From Malacoraja senta (taxonomy: Eukaryota): a DNA stretch of 64,000 nt. A program made the translations under genes and the position numbers. The DNA lies in contig CM075990.1 in assembly GCA_038087875.1 (NCBI GenBank), positions 14,510,001 to 14,574,000 on the forward strand, written 5' to 3'. Of this stretch, positions 1,410-63,545 are shown one piece after another. How positions within the stretch are numbered: position 1 is the first letter of the stretch; every line of letters starts with the position of its first letter. Below the pieces are notes generated by a model. It worked only from the letters and a program-made list of their open reading frames with translations, was not told the origin of the DNA and searched no databases.

Positions 1410-1640
1410 AGATAGACCCATAAAGCTGGAGTACCTCAGTGGGACAAGCAGCATCTCTGGAGAGAATTGGGTGACGTTTCGGGTTGAGACCCTTCTTCAG
1501 ACAGTCCCACCCCCCCCAACCTCTTTTATACAGCTGTCTGCACCCAACTGCATCAATCTGAAGAAGGGTCCCGATCCATTCCATCCACAGATGCTGCCTG
1601 AGCTGCTAAACTCCTCCAAAACGTTTTTTTTGTGCTCAAG
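1410..1640. mobile_element. Penelope-like element (PLE) terminal repeat, inverted pair
   Basis: Minus copy 1417-1503 has an intact CTGAAGA-A-GGGT-CTCA-ACCC-GAAA-CGTC motif (1473-1500); a degraded plus copy starts at 1558. Confidence 0.75.
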
Positions 1641-1870
1641 AATGTGCCTTTCGCTCGTGCCTTTCTCATCTTCATTTTTGTTTTCCATGTTGTCTTTGAT
1701 AATGTGTTGTCCAAAACCCTACTTCCATGGCCACCTCCCTTTCCTCAGCTGCTGTCCCTGAATACCAGATCACCTTGTTTTTCAGCTTATTCCCACAAAC
1801 ACCTCCCTTTCACCCTTTCGGAGACCGTTCCCCCCTCTCCCTGTACCTTAACAAGATTCCACTCTCTCCT

Positions 1871-2105
1871 GTATAGGAAAGAACTGCAGATGCTGGTTTA
1901 AATCAAAGGTAGACACAAAATGCTGGAGTAACTCAGCGGGACAAGCAGCATCTCTGGAGAGAAGGAATGGGTGACGTTTCGGGTCAAGACCCTCCTTCCA
2001 GGTTCTGACGAAGGGCCTTTGTCCTGAAACATTAACTCCGTTTTCTCTTTCCACAGAAGCACCCCTCTCTCTACCCGCTGAGTATTTCCAGCTTTTTCTG
2101 GGTTT
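1871..2105. mobile_element. PLE terminal repeats, opposite orientations
   Basis: gaactgcagatgctgg...gtgacgtttcgggtc (minus sense), followed by plus-strand CTGACGA-AGGGC-CTTT-GTCCT-GAAA-CATT at 2005-2033. Confidence 0.75.
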
Positions 2106-5100
2106 ATTTAAATTTTGAATTAAATGCATTAGTTCTTGCTGAATTATGTATGAAGCTGATCTGTGACCACCCATCTGGGCAGATTTGAGGATTAAGGGGC
2201 GTGAGGATAGAGGGTGGTATCAGAAATGGGCAGATTATGAAAGCAGTGTTTGATAATCAAGGATGGCTTGATGTAACTGAGTAAATGTATCAGCAGATGC
2301 ATGTATACAGCAAATACATTCAAAGTAAATTAAGAAAAACATACCCCTGATATAAAATGTTTGCAGACATGCAATAATGCATTTAATAACAAAACACTGA
2401 ATTTACAATTTCAAAGTAATTGCTTTTCCATTCCTACTCACCCCTTTTCTACCATCTAATACAACAAGCAGCATCAAATTACCCTTCAAATGCAGGTGTT
2501 CTGAGATTAGAAGGATAACATTTGAATTCATATCTGATTAGTTTAGCTGTCTAAAACAGATTAATTTATTGTACATATATTTATAATTAGGTGCCCAGAA
2601 ATGATGAATATGAGGAACACATTTTCTATCTGAACACTGCTATTTTGATGGAACTTGAACATTACTTTGAGTTTCAATTTGGGGAAATATTTGCAAACTG
2701 AACATTATCCACTCCCTTCGAACAATTTATCCCACCTTATCCCCCAAAACACTAATTTCGGATTTGGATCTTCTGTATTTTGGTGGCTGGGATCTTAATT
2801 GGACCTGGTAGCTACATTTTGCTCAAAGGATTCAGTACTCAAAAGTTATCATTGCATATTTTTATCTGAAATGACTTCAAACTGAGGTAACAATCCAAAA
2901 TGTTAGCTTTATTCAAAATGAAAGTTTAACCTGAACAAATTAGACGAGTATTGTATTTATGAGGAATACATAGGTTTCTGTGCAAATCCCCAAGGTCTTT
3001 GTAGTTAGAAGAATCATAATTCACTCATACTGCTTAGTGGCAGAAACAATGCTCGCAATGAAAAATTGCTTTAAAGACAATCAGTAGAATAGAGCCCTGC
3101 TGATGACAGGTTCGTGAAGGTCTGAGATTATTGCTTTATTATTATTAAATGCCCTTCACTTCCTCTGGACCTATTCCAAGTGCTATATTTCAGAGAAGCC
3201 TTTTTTCTGACAAACAAAACAATGATTTATATCCAAGCAAACAAGACACCCATGACAAAGCTCCAAAATATTTTGTTTATGCATCCAATTTCTTCAACAA
3301 TTCACCAGAATTAATTCCAGAGAAACCCCTGAAAGGTCAAAACTTCACTTAAGGTAAAAATGTAGTGGGAGTCTGTTCACGATACAACATAGATTTTAAC
3401 ATTTTGTCACTTTTTCAAAATAAAATATTAACCCTCAAGCTCAGTACAATTTATCCACCATGGAAGACAACATAATTGACAGTGAAGTTTAAAGCCATTA
3501 GAAATATACATCATGTCACTATCTGATATAACTTATTGATTTAAGATGTCATGATCAAAGTCATAATGAATTTGAAGTACTTTTTCTAACTCAATCACTT
3601 GTCACATTCCTTATCATTATCTTGAAATTTCAGTCACAGAAATGTGAATGTCTACAAGCTTATACATTTTCCTTTGGTCTTTGTAACTTATTTACCTTGT
3701 TACACAAGATGCGGGACCTACTGTTTGTAAGCTAACATGGATATCTGTTCATCATGCCATCTACTTTCCCGTTATTCCCAATTCACCATTTATTTTCCAT
3801 TTGTTCATTGTTACCTTGTTGCTTAACTGTACTGTTATGCTTATCACTCATTGTTTAAATTATTTAAAGGTTACTGGAACTTTAAATTCTAATTTCATCT
3901 TTTCCACGATAGTTTCAAGACATTCTTAAAACTTTCTAATAAATGTTATAATCGTAAAATTAGATGTTTTTTTTTTCTGTTGTAGTTTTTGCTGAATTAG
4001 TTGAATTTCCTTTACTGAGTTGCAAAGATTTTGAGATATAGTCAAAACATACGGCACAGTAAGATATATAGGATATTTTACTGTAAGATATATAGGATGC
4101 ACTGATACACATTTGGCTGCGAGATAGTTACAACTTACCAATTAGATAAATGCCGAGTTAGATATGGGAAGATTGTGTTATATAGAATTAGATGGTATGT
4201 TTGTGTGAATATTGAAATATCTCCAGATAACGAATCAATGTAACGTTTTTTTTTAATTTGGTAAGTGAACCACATGGTCTTATTCCATTTTTTAAAATTT
4301 ATTTACTTATTTTTTAACTTATTTTTTTCCACTATTTTTTAAATTTTTTATTTTGATTGTTGTTTTTCTTATTTTGTTTTATTTTTGTTATATTTATGGT
4401 GATGGTGTTGCACTGTTTTGTATATATCTCTGAAAAATCAATACAAATTTAAGTGAGAAAAAAACGAAAAAAACCCGTAACTTATTTACTTTTTGGAAGC
4501 ATGAATGTCTGAATAAAAACATTTAACCGAGGGGTCCAATGCTGAACAAAATAATGCAAATAGTTTCTCAATCTGCTGAGTAAATGGAATTTTATTTCCT
4601 TTTCCCTGGTTATTCCTTTAGGTAAAAAATCTTAACCCGATAGGTCTCTCAATCATTAAAATTTATGTAACATTTGAATCATTACTTTTCTCCCAAATCA
4701 TTCATTAAATTTTACAACATCGCATGCCCCAAAGAGAAAGGAAAAGTGCCCATGGCTGTAGGTGCAGATATCACCACCTCCAGTGATTGAAAGGCAATAG
4801 CGACATATTATAAATAACCAGTTAATTTATGTTGCTTTTGTGCAAACATTGATTTAGTGTGGGGGAAATGAGTTAAGGGGTAAACTACGTTTGTGTCTAA
4901 ATCATTAAACTTTAATGATTTTAAATTTTGCAGTTACTGTGACAATAAATTTGTCAGCAAGGAAAGCATTGCCTGCATACATCGTACGCAATTAGTGTAG
5001 CTTGTTGACCATATTTCCAATTCTCATTGACTTTTTACTGTAAGATATATAGGATGCAACGGTACTCATTCCAAACCTTCATTGCCTTATTTAAATTTGT

Positions 5101-5224
5101 TACAGCTTTATTGGATTACACTTTCGAGCATATTTTCCAGACTTAATTATTTGGTTGAATTGGATTATAATACAGAATATCTCATTTACATGAAGGCATA
5201 TGGGACTTTTGGATATGCGCATGG

Positions 5225-5343
5225 ATATGCAGGGAATGGAGGGTTATGGATTATGTACGGGCAGATACAAGTTGGTCTTGGCATTATGTTCAGCACAGAC
5301 ATTGTGGGCCCAAGGGCCTGTTCCTTACCGTTCTTTTCTGTAT
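5225..5343 (+). mobile_element. CR1/HER1 LINE 3' tail fragment
   Basis: atatgcagggaatggaggg...gtgggcccaagggcctgttcc, matching the CR1 tails elsewhere in the window. Confidence 0.6.
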
Positions 5344-5638: not shown

Positions 5639-5734
5639 CCTGAAGAAGGGTTTCGGCCCAAAACGTTGCCTATTTCCTTCGCTCCATAGGTGCTGCTGCA
5701 CCCGCTGAGTTTCTCCAGCACTTTTGTCTACCCT
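5639..5734 (+). mobile_element. Short young PLE-derived insertion with TSD
   Basis: Starts at CTGAAGAAGGGTTTCGGCCC; flanked by 12-bp direct repeat CAACTTATAGAG (5627-5638/5735-5746). Confidence 0.85.
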
Positions 5735-5924: not shown

Positions 5925-6838
5925 AAAAAACACAACAAACTGCTGGTGGAACTCAATGGGTCAAGCAATATTTGTGAAGGCAGTGTGATGGTCAACATTT
6001 TGGGTAGAGACCCTGCATCAGGACTTGGAGTGTAGAGGGAAGGTAGCCAACATGTAGAGGTGGGATGGACAGTGTGGAAGGGTTGACAGGCGATAGGCAG
6101 AACCAGATGAGCAGGGTATGAAGGGCAGATGGACCCAATGGGGAACACCAGTGTTCGTCCGCAACAACATCTTGAGCTTCTGATTGCATGTCATTCCGAC
6201 TCTTTTGCCCATTCCCACATCTACCCTTGGCCTTGGCCTTCAACGCTGCCACAGCCCAATGCTTTGAAAATTAGTTTTCCAGTTTCAGGTAACTCACACT
6301 CCTGGTGTTCCTTTCCTACTCCCTACCTAACCACCTAGGTTCTCTTTCCCTTTGTTCACCTTTTCTATTCCTCAGCCCTAATTGCCATCATTATCTTTTC
6401 CCACCTGGTTCTATCTGTCCATCACCCATGTACCTATCCACCTGGGTTGCTTGTCCCTTGGCCTACCTTCCTATCCCCTTCCCTATTTGGTTCCATCAGC
6501 CCATCATCCCTCCCACTCATCACTTTCCAGCTTCTCAACCTTGCCCCACCTGGCTCCATCTGCCCATTTTGTTTCCTTCTCTGTTTCCACCTACCCACCC
6601 GTTTCTATCTCTAAACATCCCTCTCCCGCCTGGATCCATCTGCTTGTCATCCCCCACCACATCCCGTTACAGCTATCACCAACCAACCCCATCTCCCCTC
6701 TTCATTCTCAGTGCTCATGCATAGTCTCAACTCGAAATGTTGACCATCCCATTGCCTCCCATTGACCATCCACACATGCACCTTGACTTGCTGAGTTCCT
6801 CCAACAGTTTCTTGCTTCAGATTCCAGCATCTGCAGTC
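5925..6838 (+). mobile_element. Old PLE remnant: inverted terminal copy, endonuclease C-terminal relic, pyrimidine-rich 3' region
   Basis: HLELLIACHSDSFAHSH (about 6168-6220) resembles the PLE PVAxHFN...SHS motif; C/T-rich tract 6290-6710; degraded terminal repeat 6710-6838 with an inverted copy at 5925-6140. Confidence 0.6.
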
Positions 6839-7023: not shown

Positions 7024-7142
7024 GTCTGAAGAAGGGACTCCCATTCCTTCTCTCCAGAGATGCTGCCTATCCCGCTGAGTTACTCCAGCATTTTGTGTCT
7101 GTCTTTGAATGTAAACCAGCATCTGCAGTTCCTTCCTACACA
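7024..7142 (+). mobile_element. PLE terminal repeat (internally deleted)
   Basis: ctgaagaaggg...agatgctgcc...ccagcatctgcagttccttcctacac. Confidence 0.75.
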
Positions 7143-10013: not shown

Positions 10014-10200
10014 GCCTGAAGAAGGGGTTCGACCTGAAACATCACCCATTCCTTCTATGTGGGATGCAGGGTTGTGGATTGGGCTTGTAATTGAATAGAA
10101 GATAGACACAAAAAACTGGAGTAACTGAGCGGGACAGGCAGCATCTCTGGAGTGAAGGAATGGGTGACGTTTCAGGTTGAGACCCTTCTTCAGACTGGAA
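10014..10200. mobile_element. PLE terminal repeats, convergent pair
   Basis: Plus-strand motif at 10016-10043; minus-strand motif at 10166-10193. Confidence 0.75.
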
Positions 10201-14195: not shown

Positions 14196-14360
14196 GTATC
14201 GCTGGGTTGTAAGAATTTCGCTTGGGCAGCTCACAACCCAGCGGTATGAATATTGAGTAGGAAGGAACTGCAGATGCTGGTTTAAACCGAAGATAGGCAC
14301 AAAAAGCTGGAGTAACTCAGCGGGACAGGCAGCATCTCTGGAGAGAAGGAATGGGTGAGA
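14196..14360. mobile_element. Rearranged PLE fragment
   Basis: FRLGSSQPSGMNIE coding relic, a local inversion, and a terminal repeat in minus sense at 14257-14358. Confidence 0.7.
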
Positions 14361-14746: not shown

Positions 14747-14766
14747 AAAGGGGGTGACTAGCATGA

Positions 14767-14879
14767 AGGGTTTCGGCCCGAAACGTTGCCGAAGGGTTTC
14801 GGCCCGAAACGTTGCCTGTTTCCTTCGCTCCATAGATGCTGCTGCACCCGCTGAGTTTCTCCAGCATTTTTGTGTACCT
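14767..14879 (+). mobile_element. Young PLE-derived insertion with 16-bp TSD and 26-bp tandem duplication
   Basis: Direct repeat GGGGTGACTAGCATGA at 14751-14766 and 14880-14895; gaagggtttcggcccgaaacgttgcc occurs twice in tandem. Confidence 0.85.
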
Positions 14880-17385: not shown

Positions 17386-17992
17386 CAGAGATGGATTTGC
17401 CAAACACACAGTACGTGGAAAGTAAGAGCTTCCATCAGGGGAATCTGCCCACTGAACTCTCAGCAGATCAGATCCGGAGATCAAGTCTATTCATCTCAAT
17501 GAAGAAGAATGGTTGAAGATTCTAAAGAAGACTCCCAATGTCCATACGCTCCGCAAATGCTGCTTAACCCACTGTATTACTCCTGGACTTTGTATTTTGT
17601 GCAGAAGACCGGTTATCTGTTGCCATACTAAGAATGAAAAAACATTCATTTACTTTTCATTTAATTCAGTTTGCTAAAAAATTATCTAAAGACATTAAAA
17701 AATATATATATTTTAAACTTTTTATGATTTGATTAATGTTTTATTTATTTTTATTTTCCAGAAGGTCGATGTTCACAAAGGGGGACCTGGGGTGGGGTGG
17801 GGTGGGTCGCTGGGAACAATGGTGGACCCGATGGGGGGGGGGGGGGGGACGTAGAAGGGATGAGTACATTTTGTAACTTTATCGGGCACTTTTGTGGCGA
17901 ATCTTTTTTTGTACTCCGTATGCAAAAACACAGAGTGTCACTGCACCTAGCTAGGTGCAAGTGACAATAATCATCATCAGTATCATCACCAT

Positions 17993-18436
17993 GTGTAGGA
18001 AGGAACTGCAGAAGCTGGTTTACATCAAAGATAAACACAAAATGCTGGAGTAACTCAGCGGGACAGGCAGCAATGCAAATTGGAGGAACAGCACCTCATA
18101 TTGCCCTTGAGCAGCTTCAAACCCAGCGGTATGAATATTGATTTCTCTAACTTGCAGTAACCCTTGCTTTCCCTCTCCCTCCGTCCCTTCCCCACCCTAG
18201 TTTCACTGTCCTTCTGATTAATTTTACTGATTCTCGCTTTCCCCTCAGCTCACAATGAACCAATCTACATTTCCTTGAACATCGTCTGTCATTTTCACAC
18301 CTTACCCTTCCATACCTCTAGTCTCCCTCTCTCCTGACTCTGAAGAAGTGTGTCGACCCAAAACTTCACCCATTCCTTTTCTCCATAGATGCTGCCTGTC
18401 CCGCTGAGTTACTCCAGCATTTTGTGTCTTATCTTC
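17993..18436 (+). mobile_element. 5'-truncated PLE with inverted terminal repeat
   Basis: Inverted terminal copy 17993-18071; KLEEQHLILPLSSFKPSGMNIDFSNLQ* (end of the PLE ORF); pyrimidine-rich UTR; degraded hammerhead motif at about 18340-18367. Confidence 0.85.
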
Positions 18437-18981: not shown

Positions 18982-19071
18982 ATTTCAGTGCACCAAACAT
19001 TGCCATGACAACCTCAACCTTTGGAAATTTCAGTGCACCAAACATTGCCATGACAACCTCAACCTTTGGAA
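18982..19071. repeat. Perfect 45-bp tandem duplication
   Basis: atttcagtgcaccaaacattgccatgacaacctcaacctttggaa twice. Confidence 0.95.
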
Positions 19072-20264: not shown

Positions 20265-20460
20265 TGTGTAGGAAGGAACTGCAGATGCTGGTTTAAACTG
20301 AAGATAGACACAGAAAGCTGGAGTAACTCAAAAGGAATAGGTGACATTTCGGGTCGAGACCTGAAGAAAGTTCTGAAGAAGGATCTCGACCCGAAATGTC
20401 ACATATTTCTTTTCTCCAGAGATGCTGTCTAACCTGCTACTCCAGCTTTTTGTGTCTATC
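20265..20460. mobile_element. PLE fold-back terminal repeat
   Basis: Inverted arms around ctgaagaaagtt; plus-strand motif at 20373-20400. Confidence 0.8.
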
Positions 20461-20639: not shown

Positions 20640-20740
20640 TTGAAGATTGACACAGAATGCTGGAGTAACTCAGCGGGACATGCAGCATCTCTGGAGAGAA
20701 GGAATGGGTGACGTTTTGGCTCGAGACCCCTCTTTTGACT
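20640..20740 (-). mobile_element. PLE terminal repeat
   Basis: tgctggagtaactcagcggg...gtgacgttttggctcgagaccc. Confidence 0.75.
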
Positions 20741-21721
20741 GTTCATTAGTTAGGCTAAGACGAGCAGCTTTCTCAGAACTTTCTCAAATTTAATCAGATA
20801 ACACAAAAAAAATGCTTCTACCACCTCAGGGTAAAAATGGCAGAAATAGAAATTCTTGCTTTGGATGTTACTTGTTATCTTGATCTGTGATCACATACTG
20901 AGAGGGAGAGCAGGTGGATTTGGTAAATGTGGTCTTTCAGTCCCTTCAGTTCCGTGACCGATAATTATGTATCTGTTTTGCAACATCTGTTGAGCAACCA
21001 TCCATAAACGAAAGCCCTTTAATCCTTTCACTATATTGCTGAATCTGTGCTTTTTCATTCCCTTTCCCACATAAAAATGTGGAACTAATTACTTCAGAGT
21101 GGATTCTGGCATTTCCTGCTTGCTGTTTTGGTTTTAGCAAAATGCATTTCAGATATGTACCTGATATATTTACATAGCTTTGCACATTCATATTTTTTTT
21201 AAAGAAAGTAGTTTAAATTCTATTGATTCAGTGAACATTAGGTCCAGACAATTCTTAGTCCTTTAGTTGTACCTTCTTCTATCCACTTTAACATCCTCAA
21301 AAGAAGTTGAACCTTTCTTTTCAGAAAAAGCCTAAGACACAGAGTCTCTGTTGCTACAACAGAGTGCTTTAGATTAGCTTCCAGGTTGGCACTAATCCTT
21401 CCAAAATGGCGTTGAAATGAATTCTTAATAAAAACGATGATTTATCTTGCTTGTCTCATCACCTAGGTTGTCATTTCAATTGATTTAGGAGTTTATCTGG
21501 AAAAAAATATGCACTAAATGAATCACCTTTAACAAGCAGCCAATAAATTACATGAAAAAAATTCCACTTAGAACTAGGGGTGGGGAGATATTTGACAGCT
21601 GAGTGCTGAGGTAATGTAACCCTTTGTCTTGCACGCCCAAATTTTACTTGCCTCCTTTCTTTTCACTCTTTGCTCGTGGTCTGCCATTGTGTAACATTCC
21701 CCGATCTTGAGACTTGAATCT

Positions 21722-21760
21722 TGAGTCTGAAGAAGGGCCTCGACCCCGAAACGTCACTCA
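21722..21760 (+). ncRNA. Minimal hammerhead ribozyme motif (best-formed copy) in a PLE terminal repeat
   Basis: TGAGT-CTGAAGA-A-GGG-cctcgac-CCC-GAAA-CG-TC-ACTCA: 5-bp stem I, complete core, stem II, and palindromic ACGT stem III. Activity untested. Confidence 0.55.
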
Positions 21761-22220
21761 TTCCTTCTCTCCAGAGATGCTGTCTGACCCGCTGAGTTAC
21801 TCCAGCTTTTTTATGTCCAAATTTGGTTTAAACCAACATCTGCAGTTTCTTCCTACACAATCCCCAATCTTACTTGGGTAGATTACAACCCAACCATATG
21901 AACACTGTATGCCTGAATTTCAAGTAATATCACTCGAACCTCCCCCTTCCCCCAGCTCTTGCCTGTGTCTTTTCTCCACCCAGGTGCACATACATTTTTC
22001 CCACCCCTTCCCCCACCACTCTGTTCATTTCCCCTCCTCTGCATGCTCATCCTCAAATCCCCCATTTCCATTTTCATCCCTCCCTCTTTCCCCCATCTGC
22101 CCTTTACACTCCCGCTAGCTTAACATTACTCCTCCCTCCTCTTCTTGCCTTATCTGCCATTCTTTTGCCTCCTTTTCACCTCTAGGCTTAGTACTTACTT
22201 CATGCTTCACCCATATCTGC
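21722..22220 (+). mobile_element. PLE terminal repeat followed by an older PLE 3' fragment
   Basis: Terminal repeat 21722-21859; LGRLQPNHMNTVCLNFK* relic at about 21876-21928; then a pyrimidine tract. Confidence 0.7.
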
Positions 22221-23489: not shown

Positions 23490-23835
23490 CATTTGCTACA
23501 GGCCCTTCAGCTCAACTTGTTCATGCTGACCAAGATGCCCTAAGCTAAGCTAAGGTAGACAAAAGCTAAGCTAAGGTACCTAAGGTCCCTACCTAAGCTA
23601 AGGTGGAGCTTAGGAGCGAAGGATCTATGGAGCGAAGGAAATAGGCAACATTTCGGGCCGAAACCCTTCTTCAGACTGGAGATCTGACACTACCTAAGCT
23701 AGTTTGCCTGAGTTTGGCCCACATCCCTCCAAGCCTCCCATATCCATGTACCTGTTCAAGTGTCTGTTAAATATTGTGATAACACTTGCCTTAACTACCT
23801 CCCCTGGCAGCTCATTCCATATACTCACCACCCTT
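23490..23835 (-). mobile_element. CR1 tail interrupted by a PLE fragment with scrambled junction
   Basis: CR1 tail on both sides; PLE piece 23610-23680 with a hammerhead motif at 23647-23674 (minus); repeated ctaag units at 23560-23605. Confidence 0.75.
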
Positions 23836-27343: not shown

Positions 27344-27387
27344 AGTCCCTTTAAGACTTCTAAAGCTCCTTTTTAATGATCTTCTTC

Positions 27388-27570
27388 AAGACAAAAAGCT
27401 GGAGTAACAGCGGGACAGGCAGCATCTCTGGAGAGAAGGAATGGGTGACATTTCGGGTCGAGACCCTTTTTCAGAAGGGTTAGGGATAAGGGAAACGAGA
27501 GATATCGATGATAATGTGGAGAAATAAAGAACAATAAATAAATGTTATGCAAAATAGTAATAATACCTCC
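27388..27570 (-). mobile_element. PLE terminal repeat and 3' region
   Basis: agctggagtaacagcgggacaggcagc...tcgagaccctttttcag, then a purine-rich tract. Confidence 0.75.
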
Positions 27571-27963: not shown

Positions 27964-28601
27964 TCCCCTGTCCCACTTGCGTGTCCTTGGCACGCTAATG
28001 AGGCTCGATGGTCCCGCAAAGGTCACGCGCGATTTCATGCGTACGCACAGCCGTCTGGTGCGCATGATGTCATTTGAAGATGGACACAAAATGCAGGAGT
28101 AACTCGGCGGGACCGGCAGCATCTCTGGAGAGAAGCAATGGGTGATGTTTCGTGTCGAGACTCTTCTTCAGTCTGAAAAATGGTCTTGACCCGAAACGTC
28201 ATCCATTCCTTCTCTCCAGAGATGCTGCCGGACCCGCTGAGTTACTCCTGCATTTTGTGTCTATCTTCAATTTTCTTGGCCCTGCTCTCGGAGTAGAAGT
28301 GGGGGCGGATCTGGACCGCAACTGCCTGCTTCTGCTGCTGTTGGAGGTGAGATGTTGCGTCGCGCCAGGGTCTTGGGCCTGTCCCACTTTGGCCGTCAGT
28401 TACGCGACAGGCCGTTGGCGCGCGAAGATTTCGTTCGCTACAAAAATTTCGGAGCCCCGCGCAATGTCGCGCACAACTCCATACCCCTCCGCGTTTCTCA
28501 GTGGGACCGGCCCCGCGCGGCTACACGATGCCCGTGCGCCTCAATGCGACGACGAGGTCGCGTAATTTGCGTGCCAAGGACACGTAAGTGGGACAGGCCA
28601 T
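27964..28601. mobile_element. Non-autonomous DNA transposon (MITE) containing a PLE palindrome
   Basis: About 30-bp terminal inverted repeats (TIRs) cctgtcccacttgcgtgtccttggcacgc / gcgtgccaaggacacgtaagtgggacagg; TAA/TTA flanks; CpG-rich interior; ~195-bp fold-back PLE at 28074-28270. Confidence 0.8.
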
Positions 28602-29621
28602 TTACTTACAAATCTAATTCCAACACTTGTAGGCTTTGTGTCTCTGTTCATTGCCTTCCAGTCTCTGGCTTCACCTTGAACTGGAAGAGAGGTGGAGGCA
28701 GGACAAAGCCAGGTTTTGATAGGTAGATGGTTGGACTGTATCACCTGGATCCATCTATCGCTATCCAGACTTTGACTTAGCACTCTTCCAGCTTTCTCAA
28801 ACACGCCCCATCCACAATTGGGCTGAAGAAGGCTACAGACATATCACCTATCCATGTTTTCCAGAGATGCTGCCTGACCCACTGAGTTACGCCAGCACTT
28901 TGTATTTTGAATCTATACCTTCATCTGCAATTCCCTGCATCTCTGAGTTCACCTTCACCCTCCACTCCCCTACCTGGCTGCATCTGCCTATTATCCCTCA
29001 CCCCTATCACCTGTCTCCCCCCCTTCCCCTCTCTCTATACCGACTACTTACCTTCTCGGCTCTCAGTCCTGATGCAGGATCTTGATCTTGACCTGAAATG
29101 TTGACAATTCCATTGCCTCAACAGATGCTGTTCGACTCTTTGAAGTCCTTCAGCAGTTTGTTTTTCTTTTGCTCCAAAGCTTACATGTGATGGAATTTGA
29201 TATGCAAGGAAGGTGATAATGTGAGCCATTCATGGGAAGGATGGGCCGATGGAACAAGAAGGGGAAAGGAATCCAGGTACTAAATAGTATTTTCCCTTTT
29301 TCATCACTGACCTCCACACTTGCTCTTGAAGCATCATTGAACCATTTTTTATCTTTCCTCATGATTGTTAATACACTTGAAATATTTTCATAAATGGGCA
29401 GTGCTATGAAAATGGACGTTGCTCTCACAATGTATGATATGCACAGCTGTGGAAATTGTAGGTTGAAGAATGCCGTACTGTTGCTTTGTGTACAAGTATT
29501 CTGCCAATTGGAAAGCCATAAGTCTTCTTCAAGAAATGCCAATTAACTAAAATACCTGGATGCCAGGAACTACAGATGCTGCAATATTGTGCAAAAAAAC
29601 AAAGTGCTGGGAGACGAGTCA

Positions 29622-36597: not shown

Positions 36598-36796
36598 TGT
36601 TTAAGAAGGAACTGCAGATGCTGGAAAATGGAATGTAGACAAAAATGCTGGAGAAACTCAGCGGGTGAGGCAGCATCTAATGAGCGAAGGAAATAGGCAA
36701 CGTTTCGGGTCGAAACCCTTCGGCCCGAAACGTTGCCTATTTCCTTCGCTCCATAGATGCTGCCTCACCCGCTGAGTTTCTCCAGCATTTTTGTCT
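36598..36796. mobile_element. Young fold-back PLE insertion with 14-bp TSD
   Basis: TSD AAGTTCATGAGATT at 36584-36597 and 36797-36810; ~79-bp inverted arms with 3 mismatches around a 4-nt loop. Confidence 0.9.
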
Positions 36797-46097: not shown

Positions 46098-46948
46098 TTT
46101 AAATGCTGGACAAGATTTCTAGACTTAATATGGAATTCCCCAATTTTCGTAGCCTGCGCTTTATTTCCACCTGTCGCAGAACTGTCCATCGCTGCCTGGT
46201 ATCACTTTAGCTCAGCTTTCCTCATTCCATTCATATAAGCTGTCCTGCTGGGCATGTCCCATAGACTCACCATTAATAACACATTGCACAGACAAAAAAG
46301 CTTGATGTACTTTTAACTGCACTCATTAGCCCATTTGGTCTCACCCCAGCATAGATATTGACTTGGTCTACCCATCCTGTTTCCACTATCCGTACTGAGT
46401 AAAACACAAACTGCTGGAGTAACTCTGCGGGTCAGGCAACATGGATAGGTGACAGTTCAGCTCGGGACCCTTCTTCAAACTCTGACATTAGGTCCTGCCT
46501 GACCTGCTGAGTTACTCCAGCACTTTGTCTTTTACTTAAGATTCCAGCATCTTCAGTTCCCCTGCCTGTTTGTTTGCTATTGAAACTAGCTTGTTTTTCA
46601 TGCTTTCCTGGTTCTGATGAAGAGTCTCGGAGCTGAAATGTTAAACTTTCCCTTTCAAACAGATGCTGTCTGACCTACTGATTGTATTCTGTTTTTATTT
46701 CTGACTTCCAGTATCAGTTTTCTGTCCACTGGCAGGCAGATGAGAGTGTGTGGATGTTAAGTGTGAGGAATCTAACCTCAGAAGAGTTAATGACTATTTT
46801 GCTGATTAACCCACCAATATTCACTATTCAAGCCCATACAATGTTTGTTGCAGTGTGGAAATAATACATTTCTTTGCAACTGTATCCCAGTATTAACCTT
46901 TGCTTTCAGGAGGAGTTGAAATTGGAATGGAAATTTATAGAGTGAAAC

Positions 46949-49593: not shown

Positions 49594-50071
49594 ACGCTAG
49601 TTACAGGAAACTAAGTGTGCACTGTCAACCTCTCACTCTGGCGCTGAAGCCATTATCCAAGAGTATCTGCGCCTCGAGCCTTTGTTTCCAAGAAATATTT
49701 ACAACACTGACGTTACCCAGCAGTGCGGAATTGACCAATAGTCGATGAGAGTGTGGAGGACCGCCGTGAGGGAGGGGGCAGAACAGTGGAGGACCCAAAG
49801 AATTTCATTGTGCCTTGTCACATGTGACAATAAAGTATTCCTATTCCTATTACCCAGACTTTTAATTCAATTACTATATTGCATTCACACCATGCTTCCC
49901 AGGAAATAAATCCAAATTAGCCAGTGGAAACGTATTCAATGGTCAATGAAAATAAAATGGTGGAAGTTGTTGACATTGCCGCTTTCGTCCCAATAATTTG
50001 ATAGTTTGGCCGCCACCAGGAACATTCAGGGCAAGGAATTATTTCAGCTTTGGTTAAAACATGAATATCAA

Positions 50072-50790
50072 TAGGAACTGGAGATGCTGGTTTACAAAGA
50101 AGAACAATGTCTGTGGGTCAGGCAGCATCTCAAGAGACCATGAATAGGTGACATTTTGGATTGGGACCCTTCTTCAGACATTGTAGGGGAGAAAGCTGGA
50201 AGAGAGGAGGGGAAGGATGAGGCATGCCAGGGAATACATTGATGTAAGTGTGGAGGGTTTTTTGATAGGCAGATAGTTGGACAAAGGCCAAAGATAAAAA
50301 CACAGGTGCGAGACAAAAGGATTGAAGAATTGCAATTGTGAAGCTTGAGGAAGGAATGTAGGTGAAAGGGGAGAAATAAATGGGTCCAGGTGGTGCACAT
50401 GGGAAGGGGATGGAAGAAGGGGAGAGGGTTATTTAGCGGAAGAAAAGGGGAGGGTGATGTTGTCACCTAAAATTGGAGGATTCAATGTTCATACTGCTGG
50501 GTTGTAAGCTACCCAAGTGGGACATGAGATGTTGTTCCTCCAGTTTGCGTGTGGTCTCACTCTGGCAAAGGTGGAGGCCCAGGGGGGAAAGATCAGTATG
50601 GGAAGAAGTGCTATAATGGTTAGCAACCGGCAGATCCTGCAGTCCCTGGCGGGTCGAGTGCAAGTGTTCGGTGACATTATCACGGAGTCTATGCTTGGTC
50701 TTGCTGATGTACAGGAGGCCACATCGTGTAGGCCAGGAGGGCAGTAGATGAGGTTAGATGAGGTGCAAGTGAACCTCTGTCTCTGAGGAC
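50072..50790 (-). mobile_element. Penelope-like element 3' part: GIY-YIG endonuclease pseudogene, UTR and terminal repeat
   Basis: QRFTCTSSNLIYC... then (frameshift) QGLQDLPVANHY...TRKLEEQHLMSHLGSLQPSSMNIESSNFR* (stop at 50463); pyrimidine-rich UTR; degraded hammerhead motif at 50150-50177. Confidence 0.9.
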
Positions 50791-51232
50791 TGATGGGATC
50801 CCTCGATGGAGGAGATTTTGGTGAATTCCACAAATACCAAAAGACGGATTCCAGAGATGAGAGGAGTAAAGGCAGTATTAGATTAAGAGTGGCATAAGGT
50901 CAGTGGGGATCAGGATAAAATTTCCACAGTGGGCAGCGGCATACTTTAGGGCAGCACCTGTGGAAGCAAAGGGTTCATCAACATTACAGGTCGAGATCCT
51001 TGCCCGGATGCAGGGCGTTGACCTGAAATGTCACGATGCCTTTGCCTCCACAGATGCTGCCTGACCTGCCCAAGTGATCGAACAGTTTATTTTTTGGTCC
51101 TTTATTGTCACTCTAACATACCTTCACCACTATGACTGCAGCGACTGAAGGTTGTTGACCATTACCTTGTCAAGGCCAAATTTGGATAGGGGAAACATTG
51201 TGGCTTTGTCAGTGGACACAAGATGCTGGAGT

Positions 51233-56880: not shown

Positions 56881-56881
56881 T

Positions 56882-57865: not shown

Positions 57866-58042
57866 TGTGTATTCTTTTTCTCCCAGGTATGAAACAAAAA
57901 ACCTCATATTCCCAGTTGTAATATTAAAGCCGCCAACATGAATTGCTGTTAGTGGAACCTTTTCAATCCCAAGGTACGGTACAAGCAGAAAGGAAGACCT
58001 CTACCCACCCCGCCCATCCCATGTTGGAAAGGCATTGTCTCT

Positions 58043-58323
58043 GAGTTTAGTTTGGAGATGGAGTGCTGCCCTTTAGGCCCACCGAGGTTTACCAGCAATC
58101 CCAACACACTAACACTATCCTACACACATTAGGGATAATTTACAATTTCACCAAGCCAATTAGCCCTCAAACCTGTACGTCTTTGGAGGGTGGGAGTAAA
58201 TCTGGGTTCTCTGCGAAAACCCACGCAAGTCATGGGGAGAACACACAAACTCTGTACAGACAGCGCCCGTAGTCAGGATCGAACCTGGGTCTCGCAGCAA
58301 CTCTACCCCTGCGTCACCGTGCC
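58043..58323 (-). mobile_element. V-SINE
   Basis: Tail, V-domain and head on the minus strand. Confidence 0.85.
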
Positions 58324-59799
58324 GATTCTTGGGAAATGCTTGTGCTGTGTTTCTGACTGTAAATCCTCTTTCGTAGAAGTTACACTTTACAGTTGGACAA
58401 CTACAACATTTTGTTTCCGTTGCATTTTGGAATTAAAGTTTTGTATTTTCTGTTTCAGTCTCGTGGGCATTATCTTCATTGCATGGCGGCATGCTTGATA
58501 TTTGTGTTTTCTTTCCAGAGGCATTGTCAGGCCCCATAATAGACAAAACTGTGAAATGCCGCAAACTCTTGAATAGGCGGATGTGACTGGGTTACACTTC
58601 CCTTTGATGTAGGTGGGAATGGTCATTAAGTTTCACAGACTTCATAAAGAACGACCATGTATTTTGAAACTGCTTCCAACATGATTAAAAAAACAATTTC
58701 TTTGTTAACGTGGACAGGAAATTTGCCTGGGAAACATTCCTGAGAAAGCTAATCTGAGTTTTATTGCCCCTGAATGAAATGGAAATGAGAAAATTCCACT
58801 AACCATGTGAACAAGTTAACTGATTTTGAACCAATTTCAAACTGTTGTAGACTCAGGATATTACCCATAAGTATTGGTGAATGGAAAGCTCAGATGTGAC
58901 TGAACGTGAAAGCCAAAACCAATTTGATTTTAAAATGATTTCCAACTGATTTTTGTTAAGCAATGTTGTGTGGAGGTTAACAGGCCTCAAACCGATTCGT
59001 GTGGGACCCATCCGCTAAGTTAATCCCAGAATTGACTGTCATGTGAACGAGAATTTTGTTTCGTCGGAGTGAATTCTGGACGGTCTGTGTTTAATTTTCT
59101 GTTAATGCATGCTGTGTTTTTTGAAAAAAAAAAAACGATGCTTGAAGTTCTAACACAGACAGGATGGGATCTGTCACTCAGCTTATTGCATGTTGATGAG
59201 TCAGTGCCGTTTCAGCTGTAAGCAGTGTGTGATTTATGGACATCAAGTGAACTCCTACGGCAAGGCAGCAATGAGATCACAGCGGCAACAGGGCCTTTTT
59301 TGGCTGGAGACAGTGCCTGCATTTTTCTGATTCATGCCAAACTGCTTTGCACGGCAATTAGCTCTGTCCTCATTTAGTCTCCAGTCCCAAAGGGTAATGA
59401 AAGTCATATATCATCTTCAAAGCTGCTAATTATCCAGCTCAGTTACAGGTAGGCTTTGTAACTCTGAGAAGGCCTGTCTGCATGATATTTATTGCTCTTC
59501 CAATAAGCAAGCAAAAATACTTTCTTGAAAGGTTGCCCATACCCCTGCAATACATCCTTGACATACCTTTTGCAAATGTGTTAGTCAAAGGGGAAATGTC
59601 TTCATTCCAGAGAACTCATTTTTCATTCTATAACTAAACATACAGCTAGAAGAGAGCAAATGCATGAAACCCGAGAGCTCGTACATTTTGGGGGTCATTG
59701 TGTCTCTGATGATTAACGTGAGCAATTTTAAGGCCTCGTCCACAAAGGGAAAAGGCTGTGCTGGCAACTCGCTGGCAGGGGACGACCCTAAAATGTCCC

Positions 59800-60680
59800 A
59801 CCTGTTGTTTTTCAGGTTTCGAGCAAGGCTACCGCGATAGGGAAAGAGAGACAGACGGAGAAAGAGAGAGAGAGAGAGAGAGCACGAGCCTTGAAATAAT
59901 TTGTCACTGCTCATTTCTGCAGGATGCACTAAAAACAAGATCATGCAGGATGAGGGAAAAAAACTGAGAAAGAGGCTACTTTAAGTATCAGAAAGGGGCT
60001 AATTGTCAAGGTTACATCTCAGAAAATGATTGATGTTCGACTGGTTTTCCTGTCAGCCTGTCACAAGGCAGGAATGTTTAATGTTCTCATTATTGGTTAC
60101 GCTGTTGTGTATATTTCCCTGTCAGCGAGGCAGACCCATCTGAACTGGAAAGCACTTCAAAGCCCTGCAGGTCATTTATCATCCTCCTGACTCTCAGAAT
60201 GTTCAACCTTAGCTGAGTGCTAGTGATTTGTTATGACTTGAGACCCATCTGACAGACAGGTCTTCTGTAAAAATAATTCATTTTTGTCACACTGTGAAAA
60301 CATCAATGTTCCCATAATGGCCTACAACTGTCAGAGGAGACCACCACCTGACAGTTGTGTGGTCTCACTAATTTGCAGCCCAGTGACTGTTTCCTTGAGT
60401 TTAGTTTCAGTTACCGTGCCAAGTCGCCATCTGTTATTTGCTGCCTTGGGCACGGTATGCAAGAAAAATGGATATGCTAATTGGAGTCACATATTAGTTT
60501 CATATTTAACACCCCTGGTTAAACCTCGTTTTTTGAAGTAACGCTTTAAAAAAAAAAAAGAGCAAAAGAAAAGGGACGAGTGTGTGTGTGCGCGCGTGTG
60601 TGTGTGTGTGTGGAAGAAAGAGAGAGAGAGAGAGAGAAGCGAGACTGAGTGAGCAGTTGTGACAAAATACAAGGGCTTTG
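59800..60680. promoter_or_regulatory. Candidate promoter/enhancer region of an unidentified host gene
   Basis: Lies within about 3.9 kb lacking recognisable TEs; GA and GT microsatellites; Inr-like CTCAGTC on the minus strand (60643-60649); cluster of TGACAG and TGATTGAT motifs. Confidence 0.35.
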
Positions 60681-62204
60681 TTTCCCTTCCCGACCACTGA
60701 CATGATTAATCGTTTTCTTCAGATCTAATTTTGGAACATAAAAAACACCACATTTATCTTGAAGAGGAATGATGTGTTGTACGCACAGATGGAAATTTCG
60801 AGCAGTGAAAAGATTAAAGTGAAATTCCACTCCTCAGACCTAATCATGGGTTGTAGATTATAATGTCGCTGTTACCAGATGGTAGGCTTGATTCCACAGC
60901 CCCTTCTTATATTAATGAATATTATACTGTTACATTTGACTTTGGTAAGTGAAATGTCTATCAAGTCTAATGGACTGCCAGCTAGCATAACACATGTTGT
61001 ACCACTCACATCTCCGATGCATTTTTCATGTATTATACTAATGTAGAGCATTTTATTTCCCACTGTTTTCCATCATTGTCAGTGTTTCCTAAATCTTTTC
61101 TTCACACAGAGGAAAAGTAAAACTTGCATTCCGCTTCAATTTTCCCACGTAGGTCATGGCTATAACTCTGCAACTAAAACGGTCACCTCAGGCCATCGGT
61201 ACAAGAACACAGTAGTAACTTGATTAACTTCCCAGTCAACATGACTGGGTATAAGCCAGCACTGTAACAAATGTTAATTCTATTGATTTGCGTGGACCCT
61301 GAAGTCTCTGTACAGAAAAGTGCACAAAAGTATAAAGCAACCTTTTTTTTTTTTATGAGCATTTCCTTGCTACTCATTATTCCCTTCAATGAGTGCTTTG
61401 AAAGCTGCCTGTCTTAAAGAGAGTCCCACCCTTGTTAAAAGTGTTGTAAAACTTGCGGGCCCACATCTCACGTCATTCCCCCTCGTTGCACTCCTTGATG
61501 CAGCTGTGGCCGCTTATAGCTCGGTCATAAACATGCACAAGACCCACCCGCCTCCCTCTGAGGCATCGAGGGAACCCAGCAAGATTAAGACACTTTATTA
61601 GACACTTAGTACTCCCCCCCCCCCCCCTAATGTACTGGGCACTGAAAAGGAAATGGCCTCCATGATAATGGTAATGTGGATGACAGGACATTTTGTTTGC
61701 TCATAGTTTTAGTGAATCAAAACACAGAATTTTCAGGATGTGTTGTTCATTGAGTATTTTAAAACAGTAACGTGGTCGAACAGTAAAGGTATTAAGATAA
61801 AACCTATAAAATTGCATCCTCTGTACATTTTTTAAAATTAAATGTGAATTGCAGTAGTTAGGATTGATTATAGAAAATTTGTTTCTGATGAAGATAAAAG
61901 AAACACTTTTAAGTTTATGGACATTTAAGTAAAATACGCTGGAGGGTTGAATAAGTGTAATTTTGTTTTTAATAGTGTCCTTCTGCATCCTGGATCGAGG
62001 TTCAAATGGAAAGTATAGTAAAGGGATTACATTTACTTCCTCTGCTGGCTGTAAGCATTTTCTGTTCTTGAGTGTTGGCAACATGGAGCCCGATGTTAAA
62101 TTTAGTTGATCTTCAGAGCAAAATGGCCATTGCTGTTGGCAGTAAGCTGGTTGATTCCTGGTAGAGGTGCAAGATCTCTTGTGTCACAAATTGGAATGAT
62201 TCAC

Positions 62205-62522
62205 GGGTGTCAGAGGCGTGGCGGGTGGAGCTGCTGCCTCAGGGTGCCATTGGCCCTAGTTTGATTCTGACCTTGGATGCTGCATGTGTGGAGTTTACAC
62301 ATTCTCCCCGAGACCAAGTGAGCAGGTGCTCTGGTTTCCTCCCACATCCCCGAAACGTGTGGATTTGTTGGCTCATTGGCCTCTGTAAAATATCCTCCAG
62401 CATATAGAGAACGGATGAGAACGTGAGATAACATAGAACTATTATGGAAAATGTCCATGGTAGGCATGGACTCAGTCAGCTGAAGGGTCTGTTTCCATGC
62501 TGTATTTCTAAACTAAGCTAAA
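62205..62522 (+). mobile_element. V-SINE (diverged)
   Basis: gagctgctgcctca...ggagtttacacattctcccc...gtttccatgctgtatttctaaactaa. Confidence 0.8.
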
Positions 62523-63124
62523 TCTGGTAGAGAAACATCCTGCAGTAGATGGACATTGTTAGATTGGAGATATTGAAGTTTTACACTCTATTTTCCCCAA
62601 ATCACCTTTTTATCTGTGGGTGCTTGAAGCTAATGTAAAATACTGAAAGCCACAAAGAATTATACCCCCACCCTTGAAATATAGGGTTTAAAATACACAT
62701 TTGATGTTCTTCCAATGTTTTTTTTGTTGCAATTTCTGTTTATATTATTTGCTGCTAATATATTTTGTATATTGTCAAACTGAGGGAAGGATATGCGATT
62801 AGGATCCAATCTGGTTACACCCTTGCATCCTGTAACTACAGTGCCAGTGGAGATGCAGCAGAACCAAAGGCAGTTCAGTACAGACCCCCACCTATCCTAT
62901 GCAGGAGAGTGCGTTTTCACATCTTCACCTGAAATCAATGAGAAATCCATTGACTTCAAAGGAGTGGATTTAAGAGGCAGAGTACATTGTGCTCCCATGT
63001 CACTTACTTACTGCAACTGACAGGCAATAATTTTCCTGGCAAATATACTTAACTACAACCGAACTGCATTGTCTCTCATGTCCCCTCTATTCCAATCAAT
63101 CCAATGGTTGATTTGAGAAATTTC

Positions 63125-63205
63125 TTGTCTCTGAGTCAGAAGGTTTGTGGTTAAATCCCATTTAAGGCACAGGGAAATCTAATCCTAGTTCAGTATTGAG
63201 AGAAT
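63125..63205 (+). mobile_element. Possible DeuSINE (SacSINE1-like) relic
   Basis: tctgagtcagaaggtttgtggttaaatccca...cagtattgag resembles, from memory, the shark Deu-domain SINE head. Confidence 0.35.
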
Positions 63206-63209
63206 ACTT

Positions 63210-63545
63210 AAGGTAGACATAAAATGCTGGAGGAACACAACTGGTCAGGCAGCATCTCTGGAGAAAAGTAATAGGTGACGTTTTGGGTCAGAACCCTTCT
63301 CCAGTCTGAAAGATGGAGAAGGCAAGAACAAACCAGGGCTGGCAACAGATGACCTCAGGAAGGGTGGAGTCCATAATGGCTCATTGTTGGCTGGGGAAGA
63401 TGTGCTAATGACAGGGATATGAGGATGTGAACAGTGGAACTAGAAGAGTGACTAGGGGGTGGGGGGTGGTGGTGGGGGAAGAGATGCAGGAGCTACTTGG
63501 AATTCGAGAAATCGATATTCCCAGATAGTGTTACAGCTACAGAGA
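63210..63545 (-). mobile_element. PLE 3' end and terminal repeat
   Basis: NIDFSNSK* relic at about 63494-63520 (minus), UTR, terminal repeat 63210-63305. Confidence 0.7.

Follow-up and report, generated by a model that had tools for sequence, protein, structure and literature searches.

Results

The window analysed, 64,000 nt of the Malacoraja senta genome, is scattered with copies of one repeat of about 95-130 nt that contains a hammerhead motif, together with remnants of GIY-YIG endonuclease genes (Table 1). A profile HMM recovers 49 fragments of the repeat (25 on the plus and 24 on the minus strand), covering 3,642 bases or 5.7% of the window, and none in the reversed window used as a control. 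Since 22 sites lie within 7 edits of copy 1473-1500, the "about 20 motifs" of the original prediction is a fair count, and all 11 sites cited there carry the motif on the strand given (28143-28200 counted once per strand). The exact pattern CTGANGA-N8-24-GAAA occurs 12 times against 4.24 +/- 2.37 in 100 shuffles, none of which reached 12; the full descriptor (both boxes, the 2-nt spacer, UH and a stem II of at least 3 bp) matches 6 times, with no match in any of 10 shuffles. Allowing one core mismatch gives 10 matches against 1-6 in shuffles, so that relaxed matches alone are weak, and an Rfam search listed no hammerhead up to E 10.

Table 1. Repeat copies, hammerheads and endonuclease remnants in the 64-kb window (TSD, target duplication)
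Feature	Position	Strand	Remarks
Hammerhead	1473..1500	-	All core bases kept; 4-bp stem II, 2-bp stem I; lies in repeat copy 1410-1500
Head-to-head pair	1410-1500 / 1558-1632	-/+	57-nt spacer between
Head-to-head pair	1876..2104	-/+	1909-1998(-) tailed; 2005-2104(+) older subfamily
Hammerhead	2005..2033	+	Complete core; stem II 5 bp, stem I 4 bp; 15.2/16.2 CpG-decayed
Solo insertion, 96 nt	5639..5734	+	Starts 1 nt before C3; 12-bp TSD (5627/5735); G12>A
Old-subfamily copy	5930..6021	-	C9, G12>A; pyrimidine-rich upstream
Old-subfamily copy	6715..6816	+	Decayed core; pyrimidine-rich upstream
Solo insertion, 115 nt	7025..7139	+	Starts 1 nt before C3; tail; 13-bp TSD (7012/7140); 3' box removed by internal deletion
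Hammerhead	10016..10043	+	All core bases kept; 3-bp stem II, stem I absent; 15.2/16.2 reads CA; 3'-short fragment 10016-10058
Hammerhead	10166..10193	-	All core bases kept; 4-bp stem II, 2-bp stem I; lies in repeat copy 10101-10193
GIY-YIG fragment abutting copy	14214..14358	+/-	C-terminal fragment 14214-14258(+); tailed copy 14292-14358(-) starts about at cleavage site
Insertion without 5' box	14767..14879	+	26-bp tandem duplication of hammerhead 3' half; 16-bp TSD (14751/14880)
Typical truncated PLE insertion	17980..18436		In order: 17998-18072(-), inverted tailed fragment; 18075-18160(+), end of GIY-YIG; pyrimidine-rich spacer of 180 nt; 18340-18367(+), decayed hammerhead; repeat ending at 18430; 38 nt of the arms 100% complementary; low-complexity 10-bp flanking repeat
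Head-to-head pair	20266..20460	-/+	20303-20361(-) is tailed; 20373-20460(+) keeps the whole core but has a stem II of just 2 bp; flanked by a decayed 17-bp duplication, 3 mismatches
Copy	20644..20737	-	Decayed 5' box; G12>A
Tailed insertion	21709..21856	+	Complete core 21727-21755; 15-bp flanking duplication, 2 mismatches
Older GIY-YIG end	21858-21928		Follows insertion 21709..21856
Insertion	23601..23689	-	Complete core 23647-23674; TG at 15.2/16.2; 12-bp TSD
Copy	27387..27474	-	G8>A; upstream spacer common to copy 16054-16123(+)
Head-to-head pair	28074..28270	-/+	Arms of 98 nt, 89% complementary, meeting 1 nt upstream of both C3; minus copy complete core, broken stem II; plus copy G8>A
Two old copies	28823..29165	+	28823-28908 core deletion; 29069-29165 C9; pyrimidine-rich spacer before each
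Head-to-head pair	36598..36796	-/+	Junction within stem II, neither 5' box left; only the minus arm tailed; whole unit bounded by one perfect 14-bp TSD
Head-to-head pair and old copy	46399..46695		Pair 46399-46477(-) / 46490-46533(+, tail); old copy 46614-46642(+), complete core, 2-bp stem II
PLE GIY-YIG endonuclease end	50463..50782	-	Frameshifted; 286 nt upstream of hammerhead at 50177
Repeat with hammerhead 50150-50177	50070..50177	-	G12>A; tail
Old head-to-head pair	50949..51095	-/+	50949-51001(-) / 51005-51095(+)
Repeat with decayed hammerhead 63277-63304	63213..63520	-	Pyrimidine-rich spacer; marginal GIY-YIG end 63494-63520 (E 0.034)

The whole catalytic core is kept in 9 of the 49 fragments, 6 of which have a stem II of at least 3 bp; the catalytic boxes (C3-A9, G12-A15.1, U16.1 and H17) are complete in nine copies and in the majority sequence of the commonest subfamilies. 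Of the cited copies, three lack one core base: 5640 and 50150 carry G12>A, and 28173 carries G8>A. Where copy 18340 has lost both G12 and G16.2, RNA reads from a poly(A) library of a relative retain the former in about 70% and the latter in 66-73%. In 20 core-spanning copies hand-picked from the 49 fragments, the columns that are invariant or at least 90% conserved are C3, U4, G5, A6, G8, two G and one C of stem II, the bulged A, A13-A15.1 and U16.1. The motif is, on this predicted structure, the already known minimal type I hammerhead motif of Penelope-like element (PLE) terminal repeats.

Stem II cells are paired in 85% of cases in the same 20 copies, with a bulged base after A9, and the 10.1-11.1 pair is G-C in 12 and G-U in 6. 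Stem I measures 2 bp in the common subfamilies, as had been predicted for the commonest one (its third pair is open in 15 of the 20), and 3-4 bp in two old ones. Its inner two pairs show 4 and 2 two-sided changes, a covariation score reached by 1 of 500 shuffles, in a control that uses the hand-picked rows and ignores the relatedness of the copies. The copies fall into five subfamilies, one of them old and carrying C9 (5930, 6715, 29069, 51005), outside the motif as originally defined. The proposed stem variation between subfamilies stands for stem I, which covaries, but some of it comes from single copies or from host flank. The AGGGC/GTCCT stem II belongs to a single copy (2005), as does the 5-bp TGAGT/ACTCA stem I (21727), which is probably accidental because its 5' arm is junction sequence immediately behind the target duplication, part of which it repeats. 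In the TSD-bounded copies 5640 and 7026, host DNA supplies the 5' arm of stem I except for one base. Between subfamily consensuses 2 of 11 core positions vary as against 22 of 53 in the downstream flank, which is the expected direction but falls short of significance in the window data (Fisher p = 0.19; p = 0.08 without the CpG-prone G12).

The 3' box is readable by regular expression in 28 of the 49 fragments. CG is kept at 11.1/G12 in 13 of these 28, at 15.2/16.2 likewise in 13, and at both in 8, which bears out the CpG decay reported for most copies. The palindromic 15.2/16.2 dinucleotide, which replaces helix III, is otherwise a decay product (TG or CA, 14/28) or CT (1/28). Most copies are predicted to be unable to form the ribozyme, and many are probably inactive, as proposed. 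Folding prediction for the monomer also disfavours the hammerhead: in five complete-core copies the predicted pairing of stem I is at most 0.08 in all five and that of stem II at most 0.10 in four, since the 5' box, rich in purines, pairs instead with the pyrimidine-rich 3' flank.

In the parent element the endonuclease stop is followed by 180-290 nt of pyrimidine-rich spacer with CAG at its end, then by the hammerhead, a further ~65 nt and an optional tail of ~30 nt, and two or three copies are still joined to a GIY-YIG ORF end by that spacer. The GIY-YIG ends predicted at 18.1 and 50.5 kb are real (18075-18160(+) and 50463-50782(-)), each followed by a same-strand repeat. Remnant 50466-50726 matches 9 of 35 candidate proteins, including three named stingray or devil-ray proteins (54-57% identity), the two closest of which show an RT YIDD/IDK region, a CX4CxxC linker and a GIY-YIG end. 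Pfam GIY-YIG is matched by 6 of the 9 relatives, all under the curated cut-off; a Pfam search of the window's own remnants gave no match. CX2-5CxxC lies between RT and endonuclease in 52 of 72 full-length relatives, which are only 38% identical over the remnant; the remnant itself breaks off just downstream of the linker position, and about 100 last codons of the ORF survive. The window holds no RT-coding remnant and no full element, and an intact autonomous parent presumably lies outside it. Because this zinc-finger linker is described as a mark of the Neptune and Nematis clades (10.1101/2021.04.23.441226), the repeat is probably the pLTR of a Neptune/Nematis-type PLE of a batoid genome, an element carrying a zinc-finger linker besides its C-terminal GIY-YIG.

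Each of the 10 tail matches lies immediately behind a repeat copy of its own strand. Six pairs of copies are tightly head-to-head; a tail was detected on one arm in four of them and on both arms in none, and there is no tight tail-to-tail pair in the window. Exact target duplications of 12-16 bp (12-17 bp with decayed ones) closely flank five insertions, whereas a repeat of at least 10 bp occurs in this narrow geometry at 17 of 2,307 random sites; in a wide geometry such repeats accompany 11 of the 49 fragments, with a chance rate of 7.7%. Tails, inverted copies and target duplications are published PLE anatomy. The 5' ends are clustered: TSD-bounded copies start at -1, -1, about +5 to +7, -15 and -18 from C3, and in tight head-to-head pairs 11 of the 12 arms have their ends at about -12 to +12. 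Pyrimidine-rich sequence lies upstream of 13 of 39 copies and is absent from 26, a step not accounted for by 5' truncation that is uniform or falls off smoothly. About two thirds of the hammerhead-reaching copies end at the hammerhead 5' edge instead of the cleavage site; for 3 of the 49 hits the start falls about 2 nt or less from that site. The 5' edge may mark the 5' end of an RNA.

Discussion

The closest described system is the minimal hammerhead in the pLTR of metazoan PLEs (Cervera & de la Pena 2014, PMC4209133), for which a type I core, one bulged base before G10.1, G10.1-C11.1, a palindromic 15.2/16.2 without loop 3 and many sequence families are likewise reported, along with mostly single dispersed motifs ascribed to truncated PLEs and some close opposite-strand pairs. 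The batoid repeat differs in its shorter stem II (4-5 bp, against 7-8 bp in the Schistosoma families) and stem I (2-4 against 4-5 bp) and in its C9 subfamily; a 2-bp helix I is listed there for D. virilis. The 6-9 descriptor-grade motifs in 64 kb would extrapolate to about 100-140 per Mb if the window is typical, a density exceeding the ~4,000 (coelacanth) and ~9,000 (Xenopus) motifs per genome given in that paper, one supplement file of which has no shark, skate or chimaera row. The Neptune/Nematis PLEs described by Craig et al. (10.1101/2021.04.23.441226) share the C-terminal GIY-YIG, the pLTR hammerhead, heavy 5' truncation, an inverted 5'-truncated copy at the 5' end and a 30-40 bp one-end tail, and the CX2-5CxxC linker is found here in the relatives; of the ORF, the window keeps the last ~100 codons only. 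Poseidon of Anolis carolinensis (Frangieh et al. 2024, PMC11167929) belongs to another clade, and its ORF starts at stem II, whereas the batoid ORF start was not located; as reported there, it shares two tail-separated 3' end classes about 90-130 nt downstream of the hammerhead, the lack of an RNA-read pile-up at the cleavage site and the need for an uncleaved RNA template.

The element order is seen in the window, and published PLE work suggests how such copies probably arise. The endonuclease would nick both strands 12-17 bp apart, and the RT would initiate within a transcript that has not been cleaved, using either of two start sites that lie about +90 and +115 to +130 from C3 and yield the tail-less and the tailed ends. 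It would then copy back through the ribozyme, most cDNAs stopping early, usually at the hammerhead 5' edge, and priming from both nicks would yield a head-to-head pair with one target duplication. Internal initiation, a tail between two start sites and extension of both strands are reported for the anole PLE, whose insertion does not require ribozyme cleavage (PMC11167929). Inserted copies would be dead on arrival or decaying by CpG loss, and selection on the ribozyme would act in master elements only, in which the ribozyme presumably cleaves when dimeric or when aided by the ORF protein. Tentatively, and with considerable doubt, the short copies could be run-off cDNAs of a defined RNA end at the first hammerhead bases, two of them being joined by twin priming at the near-palindrome just upstream of C3; the RT would start at the tail site, either in the 5' pLTR of the transcript or in a discrete, trans-mobilised RNA of ~100-130 nt, and the RNA 5' end would be a transcription start or the product of a pyrimidine-tract/CAG acceptor.

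The very abundant non-autonomous family that was originally proposed holds as to abundance; a separate family is not needed because 5'-truncated products of autonomous PLEs suffice, as the spacer and ORF-end copies, tails, inverted copies and TSDs indicate. An unlikely variant is a SINE-like derivative, in which a discrete RNA of ~95-130 nt starting at the hammerhead 5' edge, made by host read-through or from its own promoter, is mobilised in trans by the PLE protein. The clustered starts and pair arms, the six-copy TTCG-loop subfamily in which no copy has a linked ORF end, and an RNA-read depth over the core about 7 times that over the endonuclease end would all fit; upstream depth is, however, confounded by spacer divergence, the starts spread over ~30 nt, no tRNA head is present (0 tRNA genes found), and within subfamily A some copies have spacer and endonuclease end (18340, 63304) and others lack them. 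Moreover, a short copy forms stem I only if the host flank happens to pair, so that selection could not maintain its ribozyme; between subfamilies, however, stem I does covary.

That covariation, with both stems staying paired through subfamily changes, also speaks against a hammerhead that is vestigial even in the masters, the PLE end being kept for a splice acceptor, protein binding or the ORF start and never cleaving. The 2-bp stem I, the low predicted pairing, the C9 subfamily and the poor cleavage described for published minimal PLE hammerheads even as dimers (PMC4209133) argue for it, but the catalytic columns are the best-kept ones in the 20 chosen copies, spacer 15.1-16.1 is palindromic as the dimer model requires, and the anole PLE hammerhead is reported to cleave once protein is added (PMC11167929); we consider it quite improbable. 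Least probable are monomers shed by non-LTR retrozymes, which are tandem repeats with hammerheads whose self-cleavage gives circular RNAs that insert again. Such retrozymes, as characterised in PMC7229834 and a 2026 preprint (10.64898/2026.07.22.740005), are likewise non-coding and PLE-related, have a type I hammerhead and occur also as dispersed monomers; the preprint reports PLE-derived ones in its one chondrichthyan genome and many solo monomers in some families, and the 26-bp tandem duplication (14765-14816) and the three hits beginning near the cleavage site would agree. They are, however, tandem 150-450 bp repeats, in contrast to the ~100-nt solo or head-to-head batoid copies with TSDs and tails; the window has no tandem array of the unit (12 TRF rows), its nearest two complete same-strand cores lie 1,354 nt apart, the copies show no permutation at the cleavage site, and their motif is of the minimal and not the canonical kind (as defined in PMC7229834).

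The association of minimal hammerheads with PLE terminal repeats is known; what is added is its extension to a batoid family, of which our literature search found no earlier description, at unusually high density. The five subfamilies offer natural stem I and A9/C9 variants for cleavage assays, and the copies that stop at the hammerhead 5' edge are worth following up. The PLE transposition cycle is still poorly known, and these copies record both priming sites, the nick stagger and the cDNA stop point, so a genome-wide junction count could test internal initiation and twin priming in vivo. If the run-off reading were true, batoid genomes would hold 10^5 or more fossils that map the PLE transcript 5' end and both priming sites to the base, in what is possibly the most abundant hammerhead-motif repeat in a vertebrate.

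Hammerhead repeats in the window

At each site of the original prediction the hammerhead motif lies on the strand proposed. In this window (G+C 41.6%, CpG at 0.39 of expectation) a loose two-box pattern gave 12 matches versus 4.2 by chance, an approximately threefold excess, and the full descriptor gave 6 versus 0 in 10 shuffles; with the stems disregarded, nine copies possess a complete catalytic core. A profile HMM built on 16 seed copies converged immediately and recovered 49 fragments (3,642 bases) of the terminal repeat (pLTR) of Penelope-like elements (PLEs), with 0 matches in the reversed window; counting each of the six tight pairs, the one or two wider pairs and the one duplication as a single event leaves about 40 insertions. 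The family is abundant outside the window too, since contigs matching part of 17960-18460 at 82% likeness number 110,141 of 18.6 million in sequencing run X1 and 168,966 of 17.1 million in run X13, figures that are contig counts and not copy numbers of the repeat. The repeat pattern occurred at 0 loci each in viral contigs, metagenome contigs and prokaryote genomes. Rfam listed no hammerhead family for the window up to E 10; its top matches, to models of miRNA hairpins, lie on the 36.7-kb inverted pair with scores far under the gathering level and were set aside as artefacts.

The motifs are a real feature and a further case of the known association of hammerheads with PLEs; minimal hammerheads in metazoan PLEs, as single dispersed motifs and as opposite-strand pairs, have been published (PMC4209133). 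Non-LTR retrozymes, in contrast, form tandem repeats (PMC7229834), and this identity was dropped for the window because the repeat unit has no tandems here. A 2026 preprint covers one chondrichthyan (10.64898/2026.07.22.740005). No publication describing hammerheads in PLEs of skates or rays was found, a result of little weight as subscription literature, Repbase and supplements were thinly covered.

Structure and decay of the hammerheads

By eye, 46 of the 49 fragments were assigned to five subfamilies, with differences between them in N7, H17, the loop and both stems. Stem I has 2 bp in the common subfamilies and 3-4 bp in two old subfamilies, and position 9 is C in one old subfamily. Across 20 copies that span the core, chosen by hand, conservation is highest at the catalytic columns, and two-sided changes affect 4 and 2 cells of the inner stem I pairs; the stem I covariation score was equalled in 1 of 500 shuffles, a control that disregards relatedness. 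The stem variation described earlier holds in that stem I covaries between subfamilies, but two of the variants are each known from one copy, and the stem I of 5 bp at 21727 draws on junction sequence and is probably accidental. The core had been expected to vary less than its flank between subfamilies; the proportions (2/11 versus 22/53) lie in that direction and do not differ significantly (p = 0.19). The within-subfamily core mismatch rate (18/331 versus 213/2,025 downstream) was discarded as evidence because copies were counted only where the HMM match spans the core. CpG decay was correctly predicted: both CG sites are affected, and the two survive together in only 8 of the 28 readable copies.

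In the predicted monomer folding of five complete-core copies, stem I hardly forms (<= 0.08), nor does stem II in four of the five, the 5' box being paired with the 3' flank instead. The motifs of head-to-head pairs, in which two inverted copies face each other with their hammerhead edges, lie on opposite strands, making dimerisation in cis impossible, and the nearest complete cores on one strand are 1,354 nt apart. Poor predicted folding, this distance and the lack of cis dimers indicate that the genomic copies are very probably inactive, as had been supposed for many of them.

Poly(A) reads of a relative (run X23, about 6% read) fall on the core in equal numbers on either strand (about 2,290 each), and on the ORF end in a strand ratio of about 2:1; copies are scattered in host transcripts, so that coverage is a poor guide to the element's own promoter. 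The 2:1 bias was seen at the ORF end 18079-18197, the hammerhead part being without bias; it would be an antisense excess if the library is stranded, but a small number of host transcripts might produce it. No site in X23, the cleavage site included, is rich in molecule starts or ends, which a poly(A) library cannot show reliably, so these counts are no evidence either way on cleavage.

The probable parent element

The minus strand of 50463-50782 contains a frameshifted GIY-YIG end, the C-terminal endonuclease remnant of a PLE ORF, the longer open piece of which matched 9 of 35 candidate proteins. Those with names come from Hypanus sabinus and Mobula hypostoma (54-57% identity), and from these nearest named relatives we infer a skate or ray host. 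Two of these named relatives have both RT and the endonuclease, with a CX4CxxC linker between them; six of the nine matched proteins reach Pfam GIY-YIG, all below its cut-off. A second protein search gave 72 relatives of 746-1,657 aa, most with RT and 52 with the linker motif; a CX2-5CxxC linker is the mark of Neptune and Nematis (Craig et al., 10.1101/2021.04.23.441226). Within the window there is no RT remnant, and a Pfam search with three of its ORF remnants returned no match.

A hammerhead lies 3' of three of the six ORF ends on the same strand, at 50.5 kb, 18.1 kb and the marginal 63520(-), across a pyrimidine-rich spacer of 180-290 nt, bearing out the arrangement proposed for 18.1 and 50.5 kb; the other three have none within 450 nt on the same strand. 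As a test of whether the 3' part of the repeat codes for the N-terminus of the ORF, an HMM built from the N-termini of 32 relatives placed one tailed copy second among 2,924 six-frame segments, though only at E 0.79 and with similar scores for other reading frames of the repeat. About 20 nt 3' of position 17, the cleavage site, all five subfamily majority sequences contain another pyrimidine tract with AG and ATG after it, a possible acceptor or start codon. Tailed copies at 14214-14358 and 21709-21928 adjoin, or lie within, the final codons of a GIY-YIG end older than the copy, a hint that they inserted into the ORF-pLTR junction of the element itself.

Other sequence in the window

The longest stretch without a PLE repeat is 53587-63212 (9.6 kb; the next longest is 4.4 kb). 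About half of the sampled words from 59.5-62.1 kb are present in runs of eight other organisms, so this segment is probably conserved; queried with the segment rather than the repeat, no RNA runs sharing it were listed. The GC-rich element at 51.2 kb interrupts the repeat copy 51355-51418(-), and its left end runs into a similar 9-nt sequence of the repeat, a pattern suggestive of insertion at TA and then a microhomology deletion; the ends of the MITE-like element are related to it. Both groups of dispersed repeats of about 300 bp resemble elasmobranch SINEs of the HE1 type, and the translation of the related 300-450 bp repeats resembles the RT C-terminus of CR1-type LINEs. A perfect 45-bp tandem duplication occupies 18982-19071.

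Positions of ORF ends, target duplications and other elements in the window
Feature	Position	Details
Shorter ORF end (GIY-YIG)	14214	
Shorter ORF end (GIY-YIG)	18075	
Shorter ORF end (GIY-YIG)	21858	
Shorter ORF end (GIY-YIG)	63879	
Shorter ORF end (GIY-YIG), marginal	63520	minus strand
Exact target duplication	insertion 5639	12 bp
Exact target duplication	insertion 7025	13 bp
Exact target duplication	insertion 14767	16 bp
Exact target duplication	insertion 23601	12 bp
Exact target duplication	36598	14 bp, encloses whole inverted pair
Decayed duplication	21709	15 bp, 2 mismatches
Decayed duplication	20266	17 bp, 3 mismatches
GC-rich element with terminal inverted repeats	51225-51367	arms 51238-51271 / 51334-51367
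MITE-like element	46949-47281	48-nt terminal inverted repeats, 92% complementary
Dispersed repeats, ~300 bp, first group	7535-7868, 16857-17381, 45789-46096, 53641-53989, 62211-62522	
Dispersed repeats, ~300 bp, second group	917-1163, 25821-26137, 45014-45313, 47866-48185, 49303-49594, 58068-58326	
Related repeats, ~300-450 bp	27036-27343, 29624-30075, 33443-34124, 39700-39988	

Insertion anatomy and the 5' edge

The tail of about 30 nt directly follows a same-strand repeat copy in 10 of 10 matches. Six head-to-head pairs lie <=15 nt apart, four with the tail on one arm and none with it on both, and no tail-to-tail pair lies that close. Most of the 49 fragments have no recognisable target duplication; the score level of the decayed ones at 21709 and 20266 is reached by about 9% of control sites, and an 8-bp repeat flanking copy 5930 was dropped as being at chance level. 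Unit 17980-18436 comprises an inverted tailed fragment, the ORF end, spacer and hammerhead, its arms 100% complementary over 38 nt, the layout described for PLE insertions, including in 10.1101/2021.04.23.441226. That the short copies form a non-autonomous family, as originally proposed, is conceivable but rather unlikely, and is not needed. Of 14 short copies, 6 have a micro-palindrome at the 5' junction, versus 17% in a control (p = 0.02); without both arms of one pair the count is 4 of 12 (p = 0.13), and the excess is suggestive only.

Stem II or the 5' box is reached by 39 of the 49 matches, 13 of which have pyrimidine-rich sequence upstream (background 12%), and about 26 of the 39 stop at the 5' edge of the hammerhead. 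The HMM itself begins at this edge, so only independent borders count: starts defined by target duplication lie at -1, -1, about +5 to +7, -15 and -18 relative to C3, the first core position, and 11 of 12 tight-pair arms end between about -12 and +12. With these edge borders, and only 3 of 49 matches starting near the cleavage site, the insertion template was thus uncleaved RNA, as likewise in an Anolis PLE, for which an internal RT start, a tail between two start sites, extension of both strands and dispensability of ribozyme cleavage for insertion are described (PMC11167929).

Three processes would each account for the clustering of 5' ends, and the window favours none of them over the others: run-off at an RNA 5' end, a pause of RT at the hairpin, or microhomology at the near-palindrome that precedes C3. 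Of the relative's reads, 1,422 diverge from the reference at 18339; their majority sequence (agreement 0.4) is rich in pyrimidines, finishes with CAG and looks like a splice acceptor. In the D. virilis Penelope the 5' end of helix I is where an intron stops (PMC4209133), and this intron lies 46 nt from the transcription start (PMC2377424). Palindromes at head-to-head junctions are already known and were interpreted as antisense self-priming (PMC3846280). It is the clustering of 5' ends at the hammerhead edge that could inform on PLE transposition.
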